From: an uncultured bacterium
GTDB lineage: Bacteria; Actinomycetota; Thermoleophilia; Solirubrobacterales; 70-9
Length of the DNA stretch: 64,000 nt
Direction: 5' to 3'
NCBI GenBank assembly: GCA_963803305.1
Contig: CAWDLT010000009.1
Span: 333,347 to 397,346, forward strand
This document shows positions 2,464-61,453 of this stretch, one piece after another (within the stretch, counting starts at the first letter, position 1; each line of letters begins with the position of its first letter). The position numbers and the translations under genes were made by a program. The notes under the pieces are model-generated. The model was given only the letters and a program-made list of their open reading frames with translations. It made no database searches and was not told the origin of the DNA.

Positions 2464-3747
2464 CTACTCGGCCGACGAGGAGGAAGCAGGGCCCGGTTGC
2501 TGGCGCAGAAGCGCCGCGGTGGTCTGCTCGAGGACCCTGCGCCAGGCCGACAGCCGCTCCTCCTCGCGCTCAACCTGATCGAGCACATGGCGGACGCGGC
2601 GGGCCGAGATCTCGATTCCGTGGCGCTCGGCGATCGACTTGTAGCGCTCGTAGTCGCGCGCCAGCTTCAGCGTGACCGACTCGAACCCGTGCTTGGCGAT
2701 CTCGAGCCGGCCGCTGTAATCGAGGATCGAGGTCCCGAACATGACCTCGTCGTCGAGCTCGGGCTCGATCAGGATGATGTCGACGCCGGGGTAGCGCTGC
2801 TCCCAGTACTCGACCGCCAGGTGGAGGCGCTCGTGTGAGAGGAGCCGGAACGCCTGGTTGCCGATCGCGGTGAAGCCCATGTCGGATACGCGCCGGGCGC
2901 GGTTGCCGGTGATCGTCGGGATGCGCTTCCGGAAGTCGTTCACGTACGGGACCATGGGATTGATCACGACGATGAACTTGGCGCCGTGCTCGACGGCGAC
3001 GTCAACGTTGGTGGTCGAGCGGATGCCCCCGTCGATGTACTCACGGTCATCGATCTGCACCGGCTCGTAGACCATCGGCAGGGCGCCCGACGCTGCGACC
3101 GCGGTCGAGATCGGCACGTCGGCCCACTCCTCCTCGCCGAGCACGACCCGCTCCGTCGTGTCGAGGTCGGTGGCGGTCAGGTAGAGCTCGTGCTCGAGCA
3201 GCCGGAAGTCGTTCGTGCGATCGGGATCGGACAGCACCTCGGCCACGTACCGCTCGATCCCGGCGCCCGTGTAGATCCCGGCCGGAAGCCCGGTTGCGAG
3301 GCCCGTCGCGATGTCGACCGCCGAGAGCTCCCCGAGATGGCTGACCACTTCCCGCGCCACCCCGGCGACCCGGAGGGGGAAGGTGACCGACTTTCGAAGA
3401 AAACCTCGGTAGTTGGGTCGCAGCAGGGTGCCGAGCGAGATGTCGGAGAGGGGCGACGGGAGGTCGTTGTTGATCACCCGCATCATCTCCTCGGGGGTGA
3501 TGCCGTTCGAGACCATCCCGGCGACGAACGCGCCGGCGCTCGTGCCCACGTAGACGTCGAACTCGTTGATCGTGCTGTTGACGGCGAGCAGGTCGAGCGC
3601 CCGAAGCGCCCCGATCTCGTAAACGCCGCCGGTGAACCCTCCGCCGCCCAGAACGAGCGCGGTCTTGGAAATGCGCTTACGACCTCTTCGGCTCCGAGAT
3701 CCGCGCGACTGGGTGCGCGGGGTCTCGAGCTCGACGACCTTCCCCAT
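2464..3747 (-). CDS. Patatin-like phospholipase family protein
   Basis: Oxyanion GGGGFTGG, nucleophile elbow GTSAG and the catalytic Asp in the YIDGG motif. Confidence 0.85.
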   Translation of the reverse strand: MGKVVELETPRTQSRGSRSRRGRKRISKTALVLGGGGFTGGVYEIGALRALDLLAVNSTINEFDVYVGTSAGAFVAGMVSNGITPEEMMRVINNDLPSPLSDISLGTLLRPNYRGFLRKSVTFPLRVAGVAREVVSHLGELSAVDIATGLATGLPAGIYTGAGIERYVAEVLSDPDRTNDFRLLEHELYLTATDLDTTERVVLGEEEWADVPISTAVAASGALPMVYEPVQIDDREYIDGGIRSTTNVDVAVEHGAKFIVVINPMVPYVNDFRKRIPTITGNRARRVSDMGFTAIGNQAFRLLSHERLHLAVEYWEQRYPGVDIILIEPELDDEVMFGTSILDYSGRLEIAKHGFESVTLKLARDYERYKSIAERHGIEISARRVRHVLDQVEREEERLSAWRRVLEQTTAALLRQQPGPASSSSAE

Positions 3748-5056
3748 GGCTGTGGGGCATTATGACCGGATCCAAGCTCGATCTGATCCCTCACGGCGTC
3801 GAAGATGGCTGGCGACAGGCCTGGCCGCCGTTGCCGGCCTGCTGGCGGCAGCGCCGGCGCCGGCCGGCGCATCGGTCTCCCGGGGTCACCTGGAGCGGAG
3901 CCTGGCCAAGCAAATGCGCCACGTGGGCGGCGCCAGCGGCGCCTTCGTCACCGACCTCGATGCCCGACGCCACCGGACGCTGTTCAGCCGGTCATCGCGC
4001 CGCCACCGCCCGCTTGCCTCCAACACGAAGCTGTTCACGATGGCGGCGCTTCTCGACCGGTTCGGCCCCCGAGCCACCTTCAAGACGAGGCTCTACGCGC
4101 GGCCGACGCGCCGCGCCGGGCGGCACACGCTGCGAGCGAGCGTGGTGGTGGTCGGGGCCGGCGACCCGGCGCTCGGCAGGCGGTCCTTCGCGCAGCGCTT
4201 CGGAGTGCCCCTGACGCCGTTGGGCAGGCTCGCCGGCGACGTTCGAAGGTCCGGAATCAAGCGGATCACGGGCAAGGTCCGCGTCGACGACTCGATCTTC
4301 GACCGCCGACGCGGCATCCCGACCAGCGGGGTCGACGCCTCGGGCGAGCTCGGGCCGCTGTCGGGGCTCTCCTATGACTCCGGGATCGTCCACGGCCACT
4401 ATGCGGGGAACCCGGAGCTCGTCGCCGCCCGGGCCCTGAAGAACAAGCTGCGAAGAGCCGGAGTCAGGGTCGAGGGAGGGATCGGCCGGGCCGAACTCCC
4501 GGCGCGGGTGCTCCGCAAGCGCGCGCTGGCAAGCGTCAGCTCACCCTCGGTGGCGAGCTTGATGGCGGCGACGCTCAGGCCATCGAACAACTTCTTCGCC
4601 GAGATGCTCCTGAAGCGGCTGGCGGCCGGCCGCACCGGTCCCAGGGGCACGACCCGACGCGGCGCGGCCAAGGTCAGGAAGTTCGCCCGTCACGTCGGCA
4701 CCAGCGTCAAGCTGGAGAATGGCTCCGGGCTCTCGCGCGCCGACCGGGCCTCCCCGCGCCAGGTCGTCCGGCTCCTCGCCGCGATGAGCCGGCGACGGGG
4801 AGCCGGCGCCTACCGCCGGGGGCTCCCACTGGCCGGGGAGCAGGGAACCGTCGCCGACCGCATGAACGGCACGGCGGCCGACGGACGCTGCCGCACCAAG
4901 ACCGGCACCCTGACCGCGGTCAGCGCCCTTTCCGGCTACTGCCACGCGGGACACGGCACGGTCGCCTTCTCGATCCTGATGGGCACCCCGAACCTCGACG
5001 CCGCCCGAAACGCCCAGGACAGGATGGCCGCCCTGATCGCCCGCTACCGAAGATGA
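3746..5056 (+). CDS. dacB: D-alanyl-D-alanine carboxypeptidase/endopeptidase (PBP4, peptidase S13 family)
   Basis: SNTK (SxxK), ENGSGLS and KTGTL motifs, with the N-terminal signal-like segment RRRRWLATGLAAVAGLLAAAPAPAGA. The start is uncertain: the ATG at 3746 overlaps the divergent patatin start. Confidence 0.8.
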   Translation: MAVGHYDRIQARSDPSRRRRWLATGLAAVAGLLAAAPAPAGASVSRGHLERSLAKQMRHVGGASGAFVTDLDARRHRTLFSRSSRRHRPLASNTKLFTMAALLDRFGPRATFKTRLYARPTRRAGRHTLRASVVVVGAGDPALGRRSFAQRFGVPLTPLGRLAGDVRRSGIKRITGKVRVDDSIFDRRRGIPTSGVDASGELGPLSGLSYDSGIVHGHYAGNPELVAARALKNKLRRAGVRVEGGIGRAELPARVLRKRALASVSSPSVASLMAATLRPSNNFFAEMLLKRLAAGRTGPRGTTRRGAAKVRKFARHVGTSVKLENGSGLSRADRASPRQVVRLLAAMSRRRGAGAYRRGLPLAGEQGTVADRMNGTAADGRCRTKTGTLTAVSALSGYCHAGHGTVAFSILMGTPNLDAARNAQDRMAALIARYRR

Positions 5057-5217
5057 CTCCGCCGAAAGCGTCGCCTCCGGCTCCGGAATGACGCCGCCGG
5101 CTGCTCGCCGGAACAACTCCGCCGGAAGCCTCGCCTACGGCTACGTTTCCGGCGGGTTGCAACGCGTTACCGACCGGCAGGACGTAGCCGCCTGCACCGC
5201 GACTTCGTCGCTAGCCC
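5057..5217. repeat. Non-coding copy (1.5 units) of the family-D ~100-nt repeat
   Basis: 5117-5217 aligns end to end with the copy inside rpsQ (24578-24677). It shares the first ~41 nt with 5 mismatches and an identical last 20 nt, cgcgacttcgtcgctagccc. It lies between the convergent dacB and ligA genes. Confidence 0.7.
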
Positions 5218-5370
5218 GGACGTGGGTCGTCTGGTGAATGCATGCCATTGACTAATCGACCCACGCCGTTACGACGGCATGCCTTACTCCCTACCCAGCC
5301 CCACCACCACCGTCGCGAGCCACCGACACCACGATGTCGGCGATTCGCGATGGCGCCGCTCCTCGGGTCG

Positions 5371-8235
<2,865 letters not shown>

Positions 8236-18007: not shown

Positions 18008-19279
18008 TTACTTCAGGAAGCCCTCGTAGTTGCGCATCATCAGCTGGGCCTCCAGCTGCTTCACCGTATCGAGCGCCACGCCGATCACGATCAGGATGGA
18101 GGTGCCGCCGAAGAAGAAGTTGGCCGATGTCTGGCTGATCAGGATGGTCGGCAGCGCCGCGACCGCGCCCAGATAGAGCGCCCCCGGGAACGTGAGCCTG
18201 GAGAGGATCCGATCCAGGTATTCGGCGGTAGGTCGTCCCGGTCTCACCCCAGGTATGAACCCCCCGTACTTCTTGAGGTTGTCGGCCTGGTCGACCGGGT
18301 TGAAGGTCACCGCCGTGTAGAAGTAGGTGAAGATGATGATGAAGAAGACCTCGCCCACCACGTAGGCCCACCCGTTCGGGCTGAAGAAGGCCGCGAAGTC
18401 AAGTGCCGCGGGCGTGTTCAGGAGTTGACCTATGGTCGGCGGGAAGGCCATGATCGAAGCGGCGAAGATGACGGGGATCACGCCGGCCATGTTGACCCTG
18501 AGCGGGAGGTAGGTGGACCCTCCGGTGGTCATCCGGCGACCGACGACGCGTTTCGCGTACTGGACGGGAATCCGCCGCTGGCCCTCTTGGACGAAGACGA
18601 TTCCTACGATCACGGCCAGCGCGATGAAGGGCATCATCACGACGAAGACCTGATCGGGGTTGGTCCACCACGCCTGAATGCCGTTCGGGATCCGCGACGC
18701 GATCGAGGCGAAGATCAGAAGCGAGATCCCGTTGCCGATCCCCCGCTGGGTGATCAGCTCGCCGAGCCACATCAGGAGCGTCGTGCCGGCGGTAAGCGAG
18801 ATCACGATCAAGAACAGCTTCGGGGCGGTCAGCGTCCCCACCACGCTGGTCCCGGCGGCGTTCTGGAACGACTGGAACAGGAACACGTAGCCGAGCGACT
18901 GGGCGAGCGCCAGCGCGACGGTCAGGTAGCGCGTGTACTGGGTGATCTTCTGCTGCCCGACCTCGCCCTCCTTCTGGAGCCGCTCCAGCGAGGGCACCAC
19001 CACGGTCAGCAGCTGGAGGATGATCGAGGCGGTGATGTAGGGCATGATCCCGAGCGCGAACAGGGACAGACGCGAGAGGCTTCCGCCGCTGAACAGGTTG
19101 AGGAAGCCGAGGATCGAGTTGCCCGAGAAGTTCTGCTCGATCTCCTTGACGGTGTTGATGTCGACGCCGGGTGAGGGGATGTACGCCCCGAGCCGGTAGA
19201 GCAGGAGCATCGCCGCCGTGAAGGCCAGCTTCTTTCGGATCTCGCCGACCCGGAAGGAGTTGAGGATCGTCTGGAGCAC
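18008..19279 (-). CDS. secY: Preprotein translocase subunit SecY
   Basis: 423 aa and polytopic. It starts MLQTILNSFRVGEIRKKLAFT and contains GIMPYITASII. Confidence 0.95.
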   Translation of the reverse strand: MLQTILNSFRVGEIRKKLAFTAAMLLLYRLGAYIPSPGVDINTVKEIEQNFSGNSILGFLNLFSGGSLSRLSLFALGIMPYITASIILQLLTVVVPSLERLQKEGEVGQQKITQYTRYLTVALALAQSLGYVFLFQSFQNAAGTSVVGTLTAPKLFLIVISLTAGTTLLMWLGELITQRGIGNGISLLIFASIASRIPNGIQAWWTNPDQVFVVMMPFIALAVIVGIVFVQEGQRRIPVQYAKRVVGRRMTTGGSTYLPLRVNMAGVIPVIFAASIMAFPPTIGQLLNTPAALDFAAFFSPNGWAYVVGEVFFIIIFTYFYTAVTFNPVDQADNLKKYGGFIPGVRPGRPTAEYLDRILSRLTFPGALYLGAVAALPTILISQTSANFFFGGTSILIVIGVALDTVKQLEAQLMMRNYEGFLK

Positions 19280-19926
19280 TAGGAAACACCTCCGCCGGAG
19301 GCCTCGCCTTCGGCTGCGTCTCCGGCGGGTTCGGGCTCCGGCGTGGCGGCAGGCACCTCCGCATCTACCGCGGCTTTGCCGCTAGCGCCATCGCGTCCAC
19401 CTTGGGCCGTCTTGGCAGCGGGCTCGCTGCTCTGATCGATGAGCTCGCAGCTGCCGCCGGCTTTTTCGATCTTGTCCTTGGCGGTGGCGCTGAAGGCATG
19501 GGCCTTGACGGTCAGCTTCTTGGTCAGGTCGCCCCTGGCCAGGATCTTGACCGGATGGCGGCGCTTGGCGAGCCCGGCCGCGCGCAGCGTCTCAAGGGTC
19601 ACCTCATCGCCGGCGGAGAACCGCTCCTCGAGGTCGGAGACATTGACCGGCTGGGTGTGGGTCCGGAAGGGCTCGAACGGCATCGACATCTTCTTGTGCG
19701 GGCCGCGAAGCTTCCTGGTCCGCATGTGGATCGGGTTCTGGCCGCCCTCGTAGCCGGGCTTTCTCTTGTTGCCCGACCGGGCGCCGGCGCCCTTGTGCCC
19801 GCGGCCGGAGGTCTTTCCGAGCCCGGATCCGCCGCCGCGGCCGCGGCGCCTTCGGGGATGCCGCGAGCCCGGCTTGGGGCGGATCGTGTGGAGCCCGACC
19901 TCTTCGGGATCGAGGCGGGGAGTCAT
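19279..19926 (-). CDS. rplO: 50S ribosomal protein L15 with a ~65-aa acidic C-terminal extension
   Basis: The L15 core is GRGHKGAGARSGNKRKPGYEGGQNP. The tail ends [30 protein letters not shown] and is encoded by the family-D repeat. Confidence 0.9.
   Translation of the reverse strand: MTPRLDPEEVGLHTIRPKPGSRHPRRRRGRGGGSGLGKTSGRGHKGAGARSGNKRKPGYEGGQNPIHMRTRKLRGPHKKMSMPFEPFRTHTQPVNVSDLEERFSAGDEVTLETLRAAGLAKRRHPVKILARGDLTKKLTVKAHAFSATAKDKIEKAGGSCELIDQSSEPAAKTAQGGRDGASGKAAVDAEVPAATPEPEPAGDAAEGEASGGGVS
19290..19389 (-). repeat. Family-D ~100-nt repeat, copy inside the rplO 3-prime end
   Basis: The 60-nt core 19300-19359 is identical to 20134-20193 and 24588-24647. It contains the inverted repeat CCGCCGGAG-N19-CTCCGGCGG. 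Confidence 0.85.
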
Positions 19927-20102
19927 TCGGAGCCCTCCTCGGTGACCTCGACGAGGTGACCCACGACCTTCAGCATTCCGCGCAGCTCCGGCCCGTCGGC
20001 GCGCGTGGAGGCACTGCCGATCCGGCCGAGCCTCAGGGAGCGGAGCGTCTCGCGCTGCCTGGGACTGGTTCCGTTGCTTGAGCGCACTTGTTTCACCGTC
20101 AC
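19923..20102 (-). CDS. rpmD: 50S ribosomal protein L30
   Basis: (M)TVKQVRSSNGTSPRQRETLRSLRLGRIGSASTRADGPELRGMLKVVGHLVEV. The GTG start at 20102 lies just after the rpsE stop. The upstream part of ORF 19923-20198 is the alternative frame of the repeat. Confidence 0.85.
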   Translation of the reverse strand: MTVKQVRSSNGTSPRQRETLRSLRLGRIGSASTRADGPELRGMLKVVGHLVEVTEEGSE

Positions 20103-20103
20103 G

Positions 20104-20772
20104 CTAGGCAACGGAACCCACATCTCCGCCGGAGGCCTCGCCTTCGGCTGCGTCTCCGGCGGGTTCGGGCTCCGGCGTGGCGGCAGGCACCTCGGCATCT
20201 ACCGCGGCTTCGCCGCTAGCGCCGGCGGCATTACCTTCGGTGGCCTTGTCGTTCTTCTCCAGGCCTAGGACCTGGGCGACGCTCAGGCCGCGGAGCTTGG
20301 CGACCTGCTCGGGGCGGCGCAGGCTGGTCAGGCCCTCCATCGTGGCCTTCACGAGGTTGATCGGATTCTGGGTTCCGATGCTCTTCGTGAGGACGTCTCG
20401 GATCCCGGCCAGCTCGAGCACGGCGCGAACGCCGCCGCCGGCGATCACGCCGGTTCCCGGACTGGCCGGCCGAAGGACCACGTGGCCGGCGCCGAAGCGC
20501 CCGATGATCCGGTGCGGGATCGTCTGGCCGTACATGGGAACGCGAACCAGGCTCTTGCGGGCGTTCTCGACCGCCTTCTGGATTGCCAGGGGGACCTCGC
20601 GCGCCTTGCCGTAGCCAATTCCGACCACGGAGCTCTCATCGCCGACCGCGACCAGGGCGGTGAAGGAGAAGCGCCTGCCTCCCTTGACGACCTTGGCCAC
20701 GCGGTTGATCTCGATCACTCGCTCCTGGAGGTCGAGTCCCTGCGGGCTGACTGTCTCGATGTCGTGGTTCAT
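20104..20772 (-). CDS. rpsE: 30S ribosomal protein S5 with a ~55-aa C-terminal extension
   Basis: The S5 core is [24 protein letters not shown]. The tail is [34 protein letters not shown]. Confidence 0.9.
20124..20223 (-). repeat. Family-D ~100-nt repeat, copy inside the rpsE 3-prime end
   Basis: It differs from the rplO copy at about 2 of 100 positions by eye. Confidence 0.85.
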
Positions 20773-20796
20773 GCGCGGTCGGGTGACGTTAGCGAC

Positions 20797-21150
20797 TCAG
20801 AATGAAAGCCCGCCCTCGCGGGCGCTGTCGGCGAGCGCCTTGATGCGACCGTGGTACTGATAGCCACCGCGGTCGAAGACGCACGCCTCGATCCCCGCCT
20901 CCTTGGCGCGCGCGGCGATCAGCTCGCCGGCTCGCTTCGCCTGTTCGGTGGCCTTCAGCTTCCGCATCTCGGGCTCGGTCCAGGAGACCGCGGCCAGGGT
21001 GCGCGCCGCATCGTCGTCGATCAGCTGCACGAACAGGCCCCTGTTGGATCGGAAGACGGAGAGGCGGGGACGGGCCGCGCTGCCGCGCACCTTCGCCCGT
21101 ACACGGCGACGGCGGCGGAGTCGACGCTCCTGTCTGGTCATCACGGTCAT
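20797..21150 (-). CDS. rplR: 50S ribosomal protein L18
   Basis: [46 protein letters not shown]. The longer ORF to 21843 is a read-through artefact overlapping rplF. Confidence 0.9.
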
Positions 21151-21200
21151 CGGGGATCCTCGCCGGCGGGTCGAGGCGGGTTGGGGGCGGATCGGCTCAC

Positions 21201-21734
21201 CTAGGCCCTCTTTCCGACCTTGCGCCGCACGTGCTCGCCCTCGTAGCGGACTCCCTTGCCCTTGTAGGGCTCCGGCGGCCTGGTTCGGCGAATCCTGGCG
21301 GCGATCTCGCCGACCAGTTGCTTGTCGATGCCCCGCACGATGACCTGGGTCGGCGCCGGCACCTCGAACTCGATTCCTTCCGGGGCGGCGACCGCGATGG
21401 GGTGCGAGTAGCCGACCGCAAGCTCCAGCACCCTGCCCTGCAGGCGCGCCCTGTAACCCACTCCCTGGATCTCGAGCCGCTTCTCGTATCCCTGGGTGAC
21501 GCCCTCGACCATGTTCGCGATCAGGCTGCGCGTGAGCCCGTGGAGCGCTCGATGCTCGCCACGATCGCTCGGGCGCTCCACGGTGAGGACGCCGTCCGAC
21601 TCGACCACCTTCATGTCGCGACTCACCGACTGGCTCAGCTCGCCCCGGGGTCCCTTGACCGAGACGAGCGCGGGCTCGACGTCGACGGTGACCCCGTCGG
21701 GGATCGTGATTGGCTTTCGTCCGATTCGGCTCAT
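21201..21734 (-). CDS. rplF: 50S ribosomal protein L6
   Basis: Starts [19 protein letters not shown] and contains GYSHPI. Confidence 0.95.
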
Positions 21735-21790
21735 CTCTTCTCAGTGGCCTGCGCCTCGGGTCGGGGTGGCCCGATCCGAGCGTGGCCCGG

Positions 21791-22186
21791 TCACCATACG
21801 TAGGCGACCACCTCGCCTCCCACTCCCTGCCGTCGAGCGTCATGCCCGGTCATCACCCCGGTCGAGGTGCTCAGGATCGCGGTCCCCATGCCGCCCATCA
21901 CGCGGGGGATCTCCCCGTGAGCCGCGTAGCGGCGGCGACCCGGACGCGAGATCCGCTCCAGGCCACTGATCACCGATCGGCGGCCGTCGGTGTACTTGAG
22001 CTTGATCTGGATCACCTCGCCGACCGCGCCAGGCTCGATCGCGAAGCCGCTGATGTAGCCCTGCTGATCGAGGATGCGGGTGATCTCCTTTTTGAGGCGA
22101 GAGGCGGGGATCTCCACATCGGAGTGCTGCGCGGCGATCGCGTTTCGAACCCGCGTCAGGTAGTCAGAGATTGGATCGGTGAGCAT
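21791..22186 (-). CDS. rpsH: 30S ribosomal protein S8
   Basis: Starts [16 protein letters not shown]. The ATG at 22186 lies 6 nt after GGTGAT, whereas the TTG at 22192 used by the ORF track has no spacing to the SD. Confidence 0.9.
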
Positions 22187-22192
22187 CGTCAA

Positions 22193-22369
22193 ATCACCAA
22201 CTGCACATGCTGGTCGCGGCGCCGTTGCGTACGCACATCGCCTCTTTCATAGTCTCTGGTTTCGGCACCGCGCAACATCTCCAGCTACACATGCTGCTCG
22301 CGGCGCCGTTGCGTACGCATGTCGCCTCTATCGTGGTTTCTGGTTGCGGCACCGCGCATCAATCCTTGT
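22193..22369 (-). repeat. Family-B intergenic hairpin element, two tandem copies (rpsN-rpsH spacer)
   Basis: Each of 22193-22280 and 22281-22369 contains cacatgctg(g/c)tcgcggcgccgttgcgtacgca...ggtt(t/g)cggcaccgcgca. Confidence 0.75.
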
Positions 22370-22555
22370 TTACCAGCTCGACTTGGTCATTCCGGGGATG
22401 TAGCCCTTGTGGGCCAGCTCGCGCAGGCACAGCCGGCAGAGGCCGAACTTTCGGTAGTAGGCGCGAGGCCGCCCGCAGCGACGGCAGCGGTTGTACCCGC
22501 GGCTCCGGTACTTCGGCTTTCGCCGCTGTCGAACTACTTGTGAAGTCTTCGCCAT
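22370..22555 (-). CDS. rpsN: 30S ribosomal protein S14, type Z (zinc-binding)
   Basis: 61 aa with [20 protein letters not shown]. Confidence 0.95.
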
Positions 22556-22598
22556 GTAGGTCCTCGGTCCCAGTCCTCGATCGGGTGCGGGGACGGGG

Positions 22599-23411
22599 TC
22601 ATCCTTCCTCTTCGGTTGCTTGGTCGTCCTCGGCTTCGTCGGACGCCTCGGCGCCCTCGTCGCCCTCGGCGCCCTCGCCCTCCTCGTCGGGCCGCACGGG
22701 CTTGGCGTAGGCGTCCGGGTTCTCCTCCTTGAGCTGCTCGAGCGCCGCGGCCTCGGCCTCAGCCCGCTGCCGAGCCTCCTCGCGCCGGCGCTCCTCCTCC
22801 TCCGTCTCGTGATCGACCTGCCCCGGCCGGCCCTCCTGTGAGAACGGGAAGCCGAGCCCGAGCAGCAGCTCGAAGGCCTCGGGGTCGGTCGCTGCGCTGG
22901 TCGTGATCGTGACGTTCAGCCCGCGGACCTCGTCGATCGAGTCGTAGTCGATCTCGGGAAAGATGAGCTGCTCGCGGATCCCGAGCGAGTAGTTCCCGCG
23001 CCCGTCGAACGAGCGGGGATTGAGCCCTCGGAAGTCGCGGATGCGCGGAATCGCAATGGAGATCAGCCGGTCGACGAACTCCCACATCCGGGCGCCGCGC
23101 AGGGTGACCGCGATCCCGACCGGCATTCCCTCGCGCACCTTGAAGTTGGCGATCGACCTACGCGAGCGGCGCACGTTCGGATGCTGCCCCGAGATCACGC
23201 CGAGCTGCTCGGTGGCGGCCTCGAGGACTGAGGTCGTCTGCTTGGCCTCGCCGACCCCCATGTTCAGCGTGACCTTCTCGAGCCGCGGAACCTGCATCGG
23301 GTTGCCGTAGCCGAACCGGCTGGTGAGCTTGCCGACGACCTCGTCGCGGTAGCGATCCTTGAGCCGGGGCGGCGGAGCGGCACGCTGCGCATCTGTGGCG
23401 GTGGCTTCCAT
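22599..23411 (-). CDS. rplE: 50S ribosomal protein L5 with a ~85-aa acidic C-terminal extension
   Basis: An L5 core followed by ...[33 protein letters not shown]...[27 protein letters not shown]. Confidence 0.9.
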
Positions 23412-23416
23412 CGACC

Positions 23417-23755
23417 TCAGTCGATCGCGTTTCCGGTCCGCTTCGCGTAGCGCTCGCGCTTGCCCTCGGCGATCCGCACCCCGACCCGCGTTGGCTTGTT
23501 GTCGGTCGGGTCGAGCACCATCACCTTGGAGACGTGGATCGGTCCCTCCTTCTCGATGATTCCGCCCGCCTCAGCGCCCTTCTGGGTGTCCTTGACCGAG
23601 CGCGGGCGCTGGTGTCGCTTGATGATGTTGAGGCCCTCGACATAGACGCGCCGCTTCGCGGGCTCGGTGCGAAGCACCCGCCCGGTCTTGCCGCGGTCCT
23701 TGCCGCCGGTGACGATCACCGTGTCGTCCTTTCGGACCCTCATCGCCCTCGGCAC
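23417..23755 (-). CDS. rplX: 50S ribosomal protein L24
   Basis: A KOW motif ([22 protein letters not shown]). Confidence 0.95.
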
Positions 23756-23757
23756 GC

Positions 23758-24126
23758 CTACAACACCTCCGGGGCCAGGGAGACGATCTTCATGAAGTTG
23801 CGATCTCGAAGCTCGCGCGCGACCGGGCCGAAGATCCGGGTGCCGCGCGGGTTGAGCTGGGGATCGATCAGGACCGCCGCGTTCTCGTCGAAGGCGATGT
23901 AGGTGCCGTCGGGGCGCCCGAGCTGCTTCTTGGTCCGAACGACCACGGCCTGGACGACCTCGCCCTTTCGCACCCCGGCGTGCGGCGTCGCCTGCTTGAC
24001 GGTCGCGGTGATCACGTCGCCGACGCTCGCGTAGCGGCGGTGGTGGCCGCCCTTGACCCGGATGCAGAGGATCTCGCGGGCCCCTGAGTTGTCGGCCACC
24101 CTGAGCCTGGTCTCCTGCTGGATCAT
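23758..24126 (-). CDS. rplN: 50S ribosomal protein L14
   Basis: Starts [24 protein letters not shown]. The ATG at 24126 overlaps the rpsQ stop (ATGA). Confidence 0.95.
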
Positions 24127-24911
24127 CGGGGCGCTCGCTCCAGGATCTCGACCAGCCGCCAGCGCTTGGTGCGCGAGATCGGCCGGCACTCGATCACTCG
24201 GACGACATCGCCCTCGCCCGCCTCGTTGCCCTCGTCGTGGGCACGCAGCCGGCTCGTACGTCGGACCACCTTCTCGTAAGTCGGGTGACGCCTGACGATC
24301 GCGATCTCGACCGTGATCGTCTTGTCGCCTCCGGTCGAGACGACGCTGCCCTGCCGGACCTTGCGCGCTCCCGCCTCCCGCTCGGCGGGCGCCGTTCCGG
24401 TACCCGGCTCGCCACGCTTTGAGCGCTTGGCTGCGCGATGGCGCCTGCGGCCCTCGGCCGCCACCCCCCGGCGCTCGATCCGCTCCGCCGCCCGCTCCTC
24501 GGAGGAGCGGGATGGGCGTGCGGGACCGGACGCGCGCGATCGGCGGCGCTTTCGAAGCTCCTTCGGGGAGAGCACAACTCCGCCCGAGGCCTCGCCTTCG
24601 GCTGCGTCTCCGGCGGGTTCGGGCTCCGGCGTGGCGGCAGGCACCTCCGCAGCTTCCGCGACTTCGTCGCTAGCCCCATCGGCTTCACCTGCGGCCGCCT
24701 CTTCCGCGGCGGGCACCTCCGAAGCTACTGCGGCTTCGTCGCTGGCCTCGGCGGGTTCACCTTCGGCCGCCTCGTCTGCGGCGGGCTCCTCGGCCTCTGA
24801 CTCGGAGACGGGGCTGTCCTCCGGGGTCTCGTCGGCCTTCGGGGCGTCCTCCTCGGTGGCCTCTGGCTCCACGGTCTCTTCCTGTCCCTGCTTCTCTTCC
24901 TCAGCCATCAC
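24123..24911 (-). CDS. rpsQ: 30S ribosomal protein S17 with a ~180-aa N-terminal low-complexity extension
   Basis: The C-terminal 80 aa ([31 protein letters not shown]...RWRLVEILE) are S17. The upstream frame is open back to GTG 24911 / ATG 24908, which overlaps the rpmC stop (TGATG). Confidence 0.85.
24578..24677 (-). repeat. Family-D ~100-nt repeat, copy inside the rpsQ N-terminal extension
   Basis: It has the same 60-nt core and encodes [23 protein letters not shown]. Flanking sequence to ~24800 holds further partial D-like units. Confidence 0.85.
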
Positions 24912-25117: not shown

Positions 25118-25533
25118 TCCGAGACCCCCTCGCGGCTGACGAACTTCGTCTTGATCGGAAGCTTGTGCCCTGCCAGCCGAATCGCCTCGCGCGCCAGGTC
25201 TTCGGGGACCCCGGCCAGCTCGAACATCACCCGGCCCGGCTTGATCACCGCGACCCAGCCCTCCGGGTTGCCCTTGCCGGAGCCCATCCGGGTCTCGGCG
25301 GGCTTCTTGGTGAACGGCTTGTCCGGGAAGACGTTGATCCACACCTTGCCGCCTCGCTTGATCTTTCGGGTCATCGCGACCCGGGCCGCCTCGATCTGGC
25401 GGTTGGTGATCCAGCCGCGCTCGAGCGCCTTGAGGCCGTACTCGCCGAAAGCGACCTGGTGACCGCCCTTGGAGTTGCCGCGCATCCGGCCTCGCTGGAC
25501 CTTGCGATGCTTGACCCGCTTCGGCATCAGCAT
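25114..25533 (-). CDS. rplP: 50S ribosomal protein L16
   Basis: Starts [19 protein letters not shown]. Confidence 0.95.
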
Positions 25534-26531
25534 CAGGTGGCCCCCTCCTCGGACGGAGCCGCGGCCCCGGGGACGGGGGTGGCATCGGGCGTCGGCTTCG
25601 GGGGCTCGGCGGGCTCCGTGGCGGCCGGCTCCTGCGGGACCGACTCCGGGCCCGGCGGCGGGGACGACTCCGGCGCCGCGGACTTGCCCTCCGCGCCTGC
25701 CGGTGCGGCTGCCGGGGGCGGTGCAGGCGACGTCGCGGGGGCCGCCGGGGGCTTCGCGGCGGGCGGCGACGCGCTCGCCCTTCCCGGGCCCTGGGCTGAC
25801 GGGCGCTTGTCGCGATCAGAGGCGGTGCGGGCGCCCGGTCGGCCCCGAGGCGTGCGACGGGCGATCCCGTCCGCCTCCTCGTCGGGCTGGCCGGTGCGGT
25901 AGCCCTCGGGCATCACCTCGCCCTTGTTGATCCAGCACTTGACGCCGATCCGCCCCGTCGTCGTCTTGGCCTCGACGAACCCGTAATCGATGTCGGCGCG
26001 GAGCGTGTGCAACGGGACGCGGCCGTCCGAATAACCCTCGGTGCGAGCCATCTCCGCCCCGCCCAGTCTGCCGGACACCTGGACCTTGACCCCCTTTGCG
26101 CCGGAGCGCATGGCGGAGGTCAGGGCCCGCTTCATGGCTCGGCGGAACGCGACCCGGTTCTGGAGCTGCTCGGCGATCGACTGCGCGACGAGCTTGGCGT
26201 CGAGCTCGGGGCGCTTGATCTCGCGGATGTTCACCTTCACGGGCTTGTCGGTCAGCTTGTGGAGGTCGCGCCGAAGGGCGTCCACCTCCGAGCCGGACTT
26301 GCCGATCACGATTCCGGGCCGCGCCGTGTGGATGTCGACGGTGACCTCGCCGCGCTGCTTGACGATCTGGATGTCGGAGAGGCCCGCATGGGCGAGCTTG
26401 CCCTGAATGTGGTCGCGGATCGCGATGTCCTCGAACAAGTAGTCGGCGAACTCGCGCTCGTTGAACCAGTTCGACTTCCAGTCGTGGATATAGCCGACTC
26501 GGAATCCCTCCGGATGGATCTTCTGTCCCAT
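25533..26531 (-). CDS. rpsC: 30S ribosomal protein S3 with a ~115-aa Pro/Ala-rich C-terminal extension
   Basis: The KH domain starts [23 protein letters not shown]. The tail is ...[30 protein letters not shown]...[24 protein letters not shown]. Confidence 0.9.
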
Positions 26532-47008: not shown

Positions 47009-47800
47009 TTACTCCTCGCTCTTCGTTTCCTCTTGGACATCTTCGCCGGGGGCTTCGTTCTCGGCGGGTTCGGCCTCCGACGCGGCGGCAGGCTGGGCCT
47101 CCTGCTCCGCCTCATCGTCGTCAGCCTCAGCGGACTCTTCATCGGGCTCACCGTCGGCCGGCCCCTCCGTGGTTGCCGGCGACTCATCGGCCGACGCGGC
47201 GGCCGCGCCGTCTTCGGCCCCGGCGGGCTCCTCCTCGGCGGCGGGCTCTTCCGCGGCGGGCTCTTCCTCGGCGACCCCGCCCCCGACCAGACCCTTCTCC
47301 TGGATCTGGCCCAGCGCGACCGCCAACCCGGAGACCATCGACGCGAGGCCCCGCACGAGCCCGGTGATCGGGCTCGCCGCGATCCCGACGAGCTGGCCGC
47401 GCAGAACGTCGAGGCCGGGGAGGCGGGCGATCGCCAGGAACTCGTCGGGCCCCAGCGGAGCTCCGTCCATGATCCCGCCCTTGTACTCGAGGATCTCGTG
47501 CTGCCTGCCGAAGGTCGAGATCGCCTTCGCCGCGGTCACGGCGTCGCCCTTGACGAAGGTCAGCGCCGTGGGGCCCTCCAGCAGCGGATCGAGCTCGGCG
47601 GTGCCGACCCGCTCGACGGCGCGCTTGGCGAGCCGGTTCTTGACTACTCGGAAGGTCGCGTCGGCCTCGGAGAGCTGAGCCCGAAGCTCGGCGGCCTGGG
47701 GAACGCTGATGCCCCGATAGTCGACCGCGAAGATCGCGCTCGCCTCACCGAGGCGATCGGCGATCTCGTCGACGAGGACTGATTTCTGCTCTTTGTCCAT
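47009..47800 (-). CDS. rplJ: 50S ribosomal protein L10 with a ~85-aa acidic C-terminal extension
   Basis: An L10 core (MDKEQKSVLVDEIADRL...) followed by ...EEPAAEEPAAEEEPAGAEDG...AEADDDEAEQEAQPAAASEAEPAENEAPGEDVQEETKSEE. Confidence 0.9.
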   Translation of the reverse strand: MDKEQKSVLVDEIADRLGEASAIFAVDYRGISVPQAAELRAQLSEADATFRVVKNRLAKRAVERVGTAELDPLLEGPTALTFVKGDAVTAAKAISTFGRQHEILEYKGGIMDGAPLGPDEFLAIARLPGLDVLRGQLVGIAASPITGLVRGLASMVSGLAVALGQIQEKGLVGGGVAEEEPAAEEPAAEEEPAGAEDGAAAASADESPATTEGPADGEPDEESAEADDDEAEQEAQPAAASEAEPAENEAPGEDVQEETKSEE

Positions 47801-55468: not shown

Positions 55469-55541
55469 AGCCCGGAGTCGGACTTGAACCGACGACCCCC
55501 TCCTTACCATGGAGGTGCTCTACCAACTGAGCTATCCGGGC
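55469..55541 (-). tRNA. tRNA-Thr (anticodon GGT)
   Basis: A manual cloverleaf fits: GCCCGGA TA GCTC AGTTGGTA GAGC A CCTCC ATGGTAA GGAGG GGGTC GTCGG TTCAAGT CCGAC TCCGGGC T. It is 73 nt and CCA is not encoded. Confidence 0.9.
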
Positions 55542-61371: not shown

Positions 61372-61453
61372 GGGGGAGTATCCAAGCGGTCAACGGACGG
61401 CGCCTGTAAAGCGTCTGGCCCAGCCTTCGCAGGTTCGAATCCTGCCTCCCCCA
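61372..61453 (+). tRNA. tRNA-Tyr (anticodon GTA), class II with a long variable arm
   Basis: Manual fold: GGGGGAG TA TCC AAGCGGTCAAC GGA C GGCGC CTGTAAA GCGTC TGGCCCAGCCTTC GCAGG TTCGAAT CCTGC CTCCCCC A. It is 82 nt and CCA is not encoded. Confidence 0.9.

Follow-up and report, generated by a model that had tools for sequence, protein, structure and literature searches.

Why do three different ribosomal protein genes of one bacterium carry, in frame, the same run of nucleotides? The question is raised by a stretch of 64,000 nt (the window in the following; assembly GCA_963803305.1, contig CAWDLT010000009.1, positions 333,347 to 397,346) from an uncultured member of the Solirubrobacterales, in which rplO, rpsE and rpsQ, the genes for L15, S5 and S17, share an exact core of 59 nt. 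The present analysis indicates that this core is part of a longer repeat, which is probably a non-autonomous, hairpin-bearing interspersed DNA element of about 140 nt that is specific to a Solirubrobacterales lineage, with old insertions in the ribosomal genes and recent gene conversion between them.

The ribosomal copies and the element behind them

The core is located at 19301-19359 (rplO), 20135-20193 (rpsE) and 24589-24647 (rpsQ), with no occurrence expected from 100 shuffles, and the longest run that is identical in all three copies comprises 62 nt (19298-19359, 20132-20193 and 24586-24647). A preliminary description of this DNA had reported such a shared in-frame core, its peptide on the minus strand and about two differences per 100 nt between the L15 and S5 copies. 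All of this was confirmed: the peptide is as given there, and over the 100-nt unit then delimited the L15 and S5 copies differ at exactly two positions (19360 and 19377), while each of them differs from the S17 copy at seven. The copies also reside where they had been placed, at the ends of the L15 and S5 tails and in a block of the S17 N-terminal extension, all on the minus strand, in frame and outside the Pfam cores. In L15 (rplO, 19279-19926, minus strand; 215 aa), the core (PF00828) ends at residue 161 and the tail covers residues ~162-215. The element copy (19282-19412) was found by nhmmer and by the covariance model (CM) R1 (match 19271-19401, 131 bits); its hairpins 1 and 2 are at 19370-19382 and 19292-19328, and the stop codon TAG (19279-19281) lies within the 3' end of the element. 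L15 homologues mostly have 163-166 aa and no tail, and a subset carries a recognisably related one. Similarly, in S5 (rpsE, 20104-20772, minus strand; 222 aa) the core (PF00333 and PF03719) ends at residue 161, followed by a tail of residues ~162-222 with the element at 20116-20246 (CM match 20105-20235, 128 bits; hairpin 1 at 20204-20216, hairpin 2 at 20126-20162). S17 (rpsQ, 24123-24911, minus strand; 262 aa) has its domain (PF00366) at residues 188-255 behind an N-terminal extension of 187 aa, which houses the copy at 24570-24700 (CM match 24559-24689, 125 bits; hairpin 1 at 24658-24670, hairpin 2 at 24580-24616). The start of rpsQ overlaps the stop of rpmC (L29) by 4 nt, the N-terminus MAEEEK is conserved, and indels relative to related species keep the frame. 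From the continuity of the open reading frames (ORFs), the conserved frame, the frame-preserving indels and the inter-domain location of copies, the tails are presumably translated.

The preliminary description had counted three copies and missed the others. With filters off, the covariance model identifies six copies in the window, five strong and one partial, all on the minus strand. In addition to the three above, there is a non-coding copy at 5098-5230 (97 bits), where ligA and a Peptidase_S13/PBP4-like gene (dacB) converge with their 3' ends, and a decayed copy at 47022-47140 (57 bits, E = 9e-12) in the acidic C-terminal extension of L10 (rplJ, 47009-47800), beyond the Pfam core that takes up residues 1-97 of 263. 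The partial copy (24691-24761; 25.9 bits, E = 1.7e-4) is decayed and lies directly upstream of the main copy in the S17 extension, with which it forms a degenerate tandem. It is the 61%-identical member of repeat family D1, and its hairpin-1 motif at 24730-24745 has one mismatch. The non-coding copy is adjoined by an additional unit of the 3' terminus that corresponds to the right half of hairpin 2 (5049-5087, minus strand; nhmmer, positions 82-120 of the hidden Markov model, E = 1.8e-6). This unit shares nucleotides with the final codons of the PBP4-like gene, which is encoded on the opposite strand.

Conservation extends from about 33 nt upstream of hairpin 1 to the 3' unit GGCGGAGTTRTTCCGGAG, giving a length of about 131-140 nt instead of the roughly 100 nt assumed before. 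On the usual coding strand, the order from 5' to 3' is an arm (...GCGGCC[C/G]AAGGTG...GGNGCTAGC), hairpin 1 with a 5-bp stem and a GAA loop, an almost invariant box (CCTGCCGCCACG), hairpin 2 with a 9-bp outer stem, a 3-bp inner stem and again a GAA loop, and the 3' unit, which is frequently repeated and then encodes (EDVGGVIPE)n. The 9-bp inverted repeat noticed earlier, CCGCCGGAG-N19-CTCCGGCGG, is exact in the L15 and S5 copies (19292-19328 and 20126-20162) and has one mismatch in the S17 copy (24580-24616). Directly 5' of hairpin 1, the tetranucleotide CTAG is nearly invariant across copies (columns 17-20 of alignment A2) and terminates one reading frame in each direction. High-GC actinobacteria generally have few CTAG sites, and the tetranucleotide could represent a recognition or cleavage site. 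In some copies, hairpin 2 has a further small palindromic insert in its loop, which is read as RIRASSDHRSPSAPS or GDRSSGEAGRG in translation (loci L015 ~1560-1610, L025 ~5450-5500, L033, L003 10560-10640 and L047 ~1230-1290), and the repeat is therefore modular or nested. Rfam 15 holds no family for the element, with nothing credible at E ≤ 1 across 19200-24800; the only matches at the gathering threshold in the window are tRNA genes (55469-55541, minus strand; 61372-61453, plus strand).

The structure was analysed on an alignment of 55 copies, from which RNAalifold recovered both hairpins. Standard pairs make up 95.5% of the cells as compared to 84.1% in shuffled alignments (0 of 500 reach the observed value) and 22-43% with slid partners. 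Changes on both sides of a stem are seen in 104 cells versus 39.5 in shuffles (likewise 0 of 500), and they affect eight pairs in varied haplotype combinations. For hairpin 1, the stem variants are GCGAC/GTCGC, GCGGC/GCCGC and GGGAC/GTCCC; for hairpin 2 they are CCGCCGGAG/CTCCGGCGG, CCGCCGAC/GTCGGCGG, CCGCCGGAA/TTCCGGCGG and CCGCCGAAA/TTTCGGCGG, and many combinations of the two hairpins occur. Accordingly, the amino-acid pairs D..V/G..A and G..S/D..V co-vary because the complementarity of the stems requires it. G·U pairs, about 16 of 924 cells, are too few to tell RNA from DNA hairpins.

A degenerate core pattern, scanned against one genome per species, matched 33 stretches in about 15 metagenome-assembled genomes (MAGs) that bear the label Solirubrobacterales or Actinomycetota, in many cases on more than one contig of a genome. 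A profile search with the sequences gathered by then returned 77 copies, including two new ones in the window, and a scan of viral contigs gave no match to the core. The ribosomal operon of the window was compared with three related loci of identical gene order. In these loci, S5, L15 and S17 contain homologous modules (S5 of L001 has two in tandem), and L003 has one in S3 as well. Beyond the operon, Pfam-checked hosts with the element in frame and in forward orientation are Der/EngA, between the two G domains, an Lhr helicase, a UvrD-type helicase with a PD-(D/E)XK nuclease domain, NuoG, and an E2 acyltransferase, in the linker between lipoyl domains. Terminal extensions made by the element are found in NuoB, NuoE, NusA, S3, S5, S17 and L15. 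Every coding copy resides between Pfam domains or at a terminus, and intact ORFs, with Pfam domains on both sides or with the copy at a terminus, were established for at least 13 forward and for 4 reverse host sites. The reverse copies are the S5 and S3 tails of MAG MFD05454.bin.2.78, the NuoF tail of JBOGZC01 and the Der linker of the metagenomic locus L047. All four are read in a single reverse frame as a Pro/Ala/Ser-rich peptide unrelated to that of the forward frame, which is acidic, rich in Ala, Pro and Glu, and has a net charge of about -8 over 33 residues.

The non-coding copy at 5098-5230 has TAG stops in the usual frame, and both of its hairpins are intact, with the compensated stem CCGCCGGAA...TTCCGGCGG. 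In four relatives, the spacer between ligA and dacB contains none, a partial, one or three tandem copies; three tandem non-coding copies are seen in L119 (5180-5560), a partial one in L118 (5025-5150) and none in L120 (5020-5105). The empty spacer has a terminator-like hairpin with an 11-bp stem in place of the element and is not alignable with the filled spacers, while the variation in copy number is clear. Further non-coding copies are located at the pgeF/yggS junction and upstream of E2 (L013, L030). A search for coding and non-coding copies, as proposed in the preliminary description, thus finds both kinds in related genomes, and the comparison shows that occupancy, copy number and orientation vary among them. 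The idea of a REP/MITE-like element, put forward in the same description, is supported because the family is dispersed, bears hairpins and occurs in unrelated genes as well as in intergenic DNA in both orientations; the size and extragenic location of REP sequences do not apply.

Nucleic acid, RNA and peptide

Covarying hairpins would also be expected of a functional cis-acting RNA, comparable to a domesticated REP, that provides exonuclease protection, processing sites or translational coupling in the S10-spc operon and whose translation is incidental. The ribosomal-operon copies are positioned exactly at the junctions S5/L30, L15/secY, L29/S17 and S3/L16, the copy between the convergent genes ligA and dacB is in a typical place of REP-type stabilisers, and the conservation of the S17 copy far exceeds that of the flanking DNA. 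At the 3' end of the element, GGCGGAGGTG lies 7 nt upstream of the GTG start of secY (18008-19279, minus strand; interval 19279-19295), which follows the GGAGGTG of the element, and 12 nt upstream of the TTG start of rpmD, encoding L30 (20109-20125); it is similarly placed before rplP in L003 (~4650-4680). The stop codon of rpsE overlaps this TTG at 20111-20109, and the junction sequence is kept in relatives. Judged from these positions, GGCGGAGGTG may act as ribosome-binding site for secY, rpmD and rplP, and the stop codon of a host gene and the Shine-Dalgarno sequence of the next gene may both come from the element. Nevertheless, we consider it unlikely that the element is mainly a cis-acting RNA. 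Many copies lie deep within ORFs (Der, Lhr, the UvrD-type helicase, NuoG and E2), where a role at junctions would make no sense. The same sites are occupied in both orientations, close relatives differ freely in occupancy and in the number of copies, and an Rfam family is lacking. Such a role is compatible with a dispersed DNA element as a secondary exaptation.

A second alternative is a module at the protein level, that is, a useful acidic, disordered tail that was spread and is maintained by selection on the peptide, with merely incidental palindromes. The great majority of the coding copies is indeed read in one frame as an acidic Ala/Pro/Glu peptide, and L5 and L10 in the window have acidic tails as well. 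However, mean conservation at codon positions 1, 2 and 3 is 0.86, 0.75 and 0.81, respectively. Third positions are hence better conserved than second positions, a pattern that is the reverse of protein-level selection, and the box CCT GCC GCC ACG is 91-100% invariant at every position. The G+C content at third codon positions (GC3) is 0.66 in the element, which has 72-74% G+C overall, as opposed to 0.87-0.92 in the surrounding ribosomal genes, and is thus foreign to its hosts. Moreover, reverse copies at the same kinds of site encode the unrelated Pro/Ala/Ser peptide, non-coding copies with stops keep their hairpins by compensatory changes, and the pairs D..V/G..A and G..S/D..V covary exactly as pairing of the stems demands. 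Codon-position conservation, GC3, and the reverse and non-coding copies largely refute a peptide-level module, and we regard it as very improbable. Hairpin compensation, third-position conservation, GC3 and the reverse and non-coding copies strongly indicate that it is the nucleic acid that is constrained, with the peptide carried along as a passenger.

Old insertions and gene conversion

The near-identity of the ribosomal copies was addressed site by site with L036 (MAG MFD00392.bin.2.110) as reference, to which the window is ~91% identical across the operon; identity to L001 is ~90%. In L036, L001, L002 and L003, the element is found at the same positions of S5, L15 and S17; its flanks are orthologous, and the interiors have diverged. 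In nucleotide sequence, the copies of the window are 90-94% identical among themselves and only 72-81% identical to the orthologous copies of L001. The interior of the L15 copy differs from that of L036 at 22 of 97 positions, compared to 8.8% outside (Fisher p = 1e-4), and 21 of these 22 are equal to both paralogues in the window. For the S5 interior, the difference amounts to 12 of 98 positions, 11 of which match the paralogues in the window and are clustered at 20166-20220. Both copies have orthologous flanks, retain the ancestral hairpin-1 variant, and have interiors unlike those of all relatives. The comparison thereby shows the copies in rplO, rpsE and rpsQ to be, by their orthologous context, old insertions common to related species, and the same pattern of differences shows that in this genome ectopic gene conversion between copies has recently overwritten the S5 and L15 interiors with a variant that is also present in S17. 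The three-way identity over 62 nt is the product of this replacement.

Gene conversion had already been suggested in the preliminary description and is borne out by interiors that match paralogues between orthologous flanks. Recent spread, which it had also suggested, holds for the homogenisation only, as the insertion sites are occupied in L036, L001, L002 and L003. Ordinary descent, with the same tails in relatives at normal synonymous divergence, had been named there as the contrary outcome: the sites are indeed shared, whereas the divergence is not normal, with the S5 and L15 interiors replaced. The S17 copy (24578-24677) behaves differently and deviates from L036 (313-417) at 1 of 100 positions (99% identity) versus 9.7% in the flanks (p = 0.0015), a contrast that suggests either that the nucleotides are under strong constraint or that one master variant converted the copy in both genomes in parallel. 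In the 5' segment, the converted S5 and L15 copies have GGTAGAT, typical of a widespread subfamily in Lhr, Der, NuoG and E2, whereas S17 has GGAAGCT. GGTAGAT being absent from S17, either two or more events took place or the donor lay outside the window.

Homogenisation of the copies by reads of one of them during assembly or polishing would produce near-identity as well. The source is apparently a MAG, its LigA being 100% identical to a protein on an NCBI/ENA contig of 692 kb, and frameshift errors do occur in related MAG contigs. L002 (ERZ25039581 contig_66366) is a case in point: frameshifts at 3083-3889 and 6992-7867 fuse S5 to L30 and scramble S17, and the element is therefore read in the +1 frame there. 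These frameshifts are probably assembly errors and a warning on the base-level quality of such MAGs. In the window, however, each of the three copies has flanks of its own and, beside the identical run, differences that set it apart from the others (2 to 7 per 100 nt), the three ORFs are intact, and the conversion tracts differ in length between S5 and L15. In addition, a soil contig of 692 kb would imply long reads that span all three copies, which lie within 5.4 kb. An artefact is thus highly unlikely. New insertion of an active master copy into each of rplO, rpsE and rpsQ separately in this genome would account for identity that reaches synonymous sites and for a variant that is widespread in other genes and genomes, but has next to no probability and is ruled out by the orthologous occupancy of the sites, with positions, element ends and flanks shared by L036, L001, L002 and L003 and the ancestral hairpin-1 variant retained in S5 and L15 copies that differ only in their interiors.

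Mobility, related repeats and implications

The distribution of the copies would be explained if the element spread as DNA by a transposition-like or copy-insertion process that recognises the hairpins. Copies would persist only where they are harmless, that is, in intergenic spacers, operon junctions, protein termini and inter-domain linkers; in coding DNA, only those in stop-free frames would survive and be translated as low-complexity segments. Once inserted, copies are also duplicated in tandem and lose internal parts by deletion. Whole-copy tandems are found in S5, S3, S17 and the ligA spacer. Decay is seen in solo hairpin-1 units, which occur in der linkers and at the end of der, where such a unit (GGGCTAGCGACGAAGTCGCGGTAG), read in the +1 frame of the element, forms the last residues (GLATKSR) and the TAG stop (L015 2418-2445; L024, reverse strand, ~6440-6470). 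A GAA loop closed by C:G makes for an unusually stable structure in single-stranded DNA, and the d(GCGAAGC) hairpin of Hirao et al. is reportedly very stable. Hairpins capped in this way may suit a single-strand enzyme of the HUH/Y1 type.

Several observations weigh against this interpretation. Active mobility is something that we infer, and no mobilising enzyme or autonomous partner turned up, although no search aimed at a gene of the HUH/Y1 type was made. Neither terminal inverted repeats nor a target-site duplication was found in the copies compared; the sole match between the element ends is the short motif CCGCCGG / CCGGCGG, which recurs internally. Among 80 metagenomic der loci taken to define the boundaries of insertion, the nearest 'empty' linkers keep a solo hairpin-1 remnant, and no target duplication is readable at der because these nearest empties hold remnants and true empties are too diverged. 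The density of copies outside the known hosts is low, and a very active element would be commoner: in 377 kb of DNA from the clade that had been chosen for der and not for the element, matches occur only inside der, and 321 kb of outgroup DNA contain no copies. The high copy density that was first expected is rejected by the lack of copies outside der in about 320 kb of der-flanking DNA from the clade. Furthermore, most coding copies have one orientation and frame, which could reflect some selection on the peptide or the mRNA, and the independent compensatory events may be few, as nearby sides of a stem could be co-inherited or shuffled by conversion. Finally, the donor of the conversion cannot be named, and consensus polishing is a possible, if unlikely, source of homogeneity. 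It might tentatively be speculated, and we rate this as somewhat less than an even chance, that the element represents an undescribed selfish family of the type found in Rickettsia (see below), still active and mobilised by an HUH/Y1 enzyme with the GAA-capped hairpins as recognition sites, which inserts in both orientations and remodels S3, S5, S17, L15, L10, complex I, Der, NusA and helicases, while copies at junctions are co-opted for Shine-Dalgarno sequences and stop codons.

The ribosomal region of the window harbours other long, lineage-specific low-complexity extensions without a match to the element model, namely the acidic C-terminal tail of L5 (22599-22840), a Pro/Ala-rich C-terminal extension of S3 (25533-25900) and a basic segment of ~100 aa in the S17 N-terminal extension (24123-24560). 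These may be unrelated to the element or fully decayed copies. In the minus-strand spacer between rpsN (22370-22555) and rpsH (21791-22192), a unit of 84 nt is tandemly duplicated with 86% identity (22193-22360). L001, L003 and L036 have it as a single copy. Its fold includes a conserved stem of 10 bp (GCGCGGTGCC...GGCGCCGCGC), and the unit might be an operator or leader for ribosomal proteins.

The closest analogue is the Rickettsia palindromic element (RPE; Ogata et al. 2000), which, according to PMC10969869 and PMC3184786, comprises repeats of 105-146 bp located in frame in dozens of unrelated genes. Both are dispersed palindromic repeats of ~100-150 bp with the potential to form hairpins, both are inserted in frame and without disruption in many unrelated, often essential genes and also occur in intergenic DNA, and both are read through, presumably so in the present case, as an extra peptide at apparently tolerated positions. 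By these features the present repeat is RPE-like. There is, however, no relationship in sequence, and the host is a free-living, high-GC soil actinobacterial lineage instead of a reduced intracellular alphaproteobacterium. The present element is hosted by universal ribosomal proteins (S3, S5, S17, L15 and L10) and subunits of complex I, fills the same kinds of site in both orientations to give two unrelated peptides, consists of two short GAA-capped hairpins and a conserved box, and has documented conversion between its copies. Membership in RPE families 1-10 can be rejected, as all matches are in Solirubrobacterales/Actinomycetota MAGs and the element has 72-74% G+C; the RPE is an analogue only.

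Other known repeats share fewer traits. MIRU (Supply et al. 1997), described in PMC3184786 as intergenic mini-ORFs at gene junctions in operons, are likewise actinobacterial and G+C-rich, reside at junctions within polycistronic operons (at a size of 40-100 bp), have ORF ends that overlap neighbouring genes, and vary in tandem number. By that description, they neither extend the flanking proteins in frame nor interrupt them internally. Sequence similarity between MIRU and the present element is absent. To our knowledge, neither hairpin covariation nor translation in two orientations has been described for MIRU. With REP/REPIN elements, which are mobilised by RAYT (IS200/IS605-like Y1 transposases), and with IS200/IS605-derived palindrome-associated elements, the present element has in common short, G+C-rich, imperfect and conserved hairpins, the absence of obvious long terminal inverted repeats, a conserved CTAG beside hairpin 1 and a copy between convergent genes. 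REP sequences are 20-40 bp long and extragenic, in contrast to ~140 nt and a mostly intragenic location here, and the REP/REPIN class was rejected on size and location, even though CTAG does flank hairpin 1. Fusions with gene ends or in frame are also known from Coxiella QMITE1/2, pneumococcal/Bordetella BOX, RUP and BRE (PMC5896051; PMC3184786). Like the present element, these extend 3' or 5' gene ends or sit in frame and sometimes supply the stop codon. They differ in having clear terminal inverted repeats and target duplications, neither of which was found here, and in affecting mostly hypothetical genes, whereas the present hosts are core informational and respiratory proteins. Ectopic gene conversion between bacterial paralogues or repeats is familiar from tufA/tufB and the rRNA operons. 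As in those cases, interiors are replaced non-reciprocally between orthologous flanks, and identity within the genome exceeds that between orthologues of different species. The tracts seen here are very short in comparison (~40-90 nt) and lie in a segment of three ribosomal genes that is derived from a mobile element.

Literature searches on repeats in Solirubrobacterales or Thermoleophilia returned nothing relevant, and the element apparently constitutes a new, undescribed family of in-frame palindromic repeats. A 2024 review on MITEs regards a similar in-frame mechanism in other prokaryotes as only 'conceivable' (PMC10969869). In-frame colonisation by palindromic repeats, which has been regarded as nearly peculiar to Rickettsia, is thus encountered in an unrelated, free-living, high-GC soil lineage. 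Short-tract gene conversion acts between different ribosomal protein genes, and on the practical side, element segments can mislead ribosomal phylogenomic alignments, domain annotation, and the polishing and binning of MAGs. The sites that are filled in forward or reverse orientation or are empty provide natural experiments on the tolerance of essential proteins. Lineage-specific tails of ribosomal proteins can arise from repeat DNA, and adaptation of the ribosome is not required to explain them. Should the family indeed be selfish and still active, it would represent a general and ongoing way for essential proteins to acquire disordered tails and linkers.

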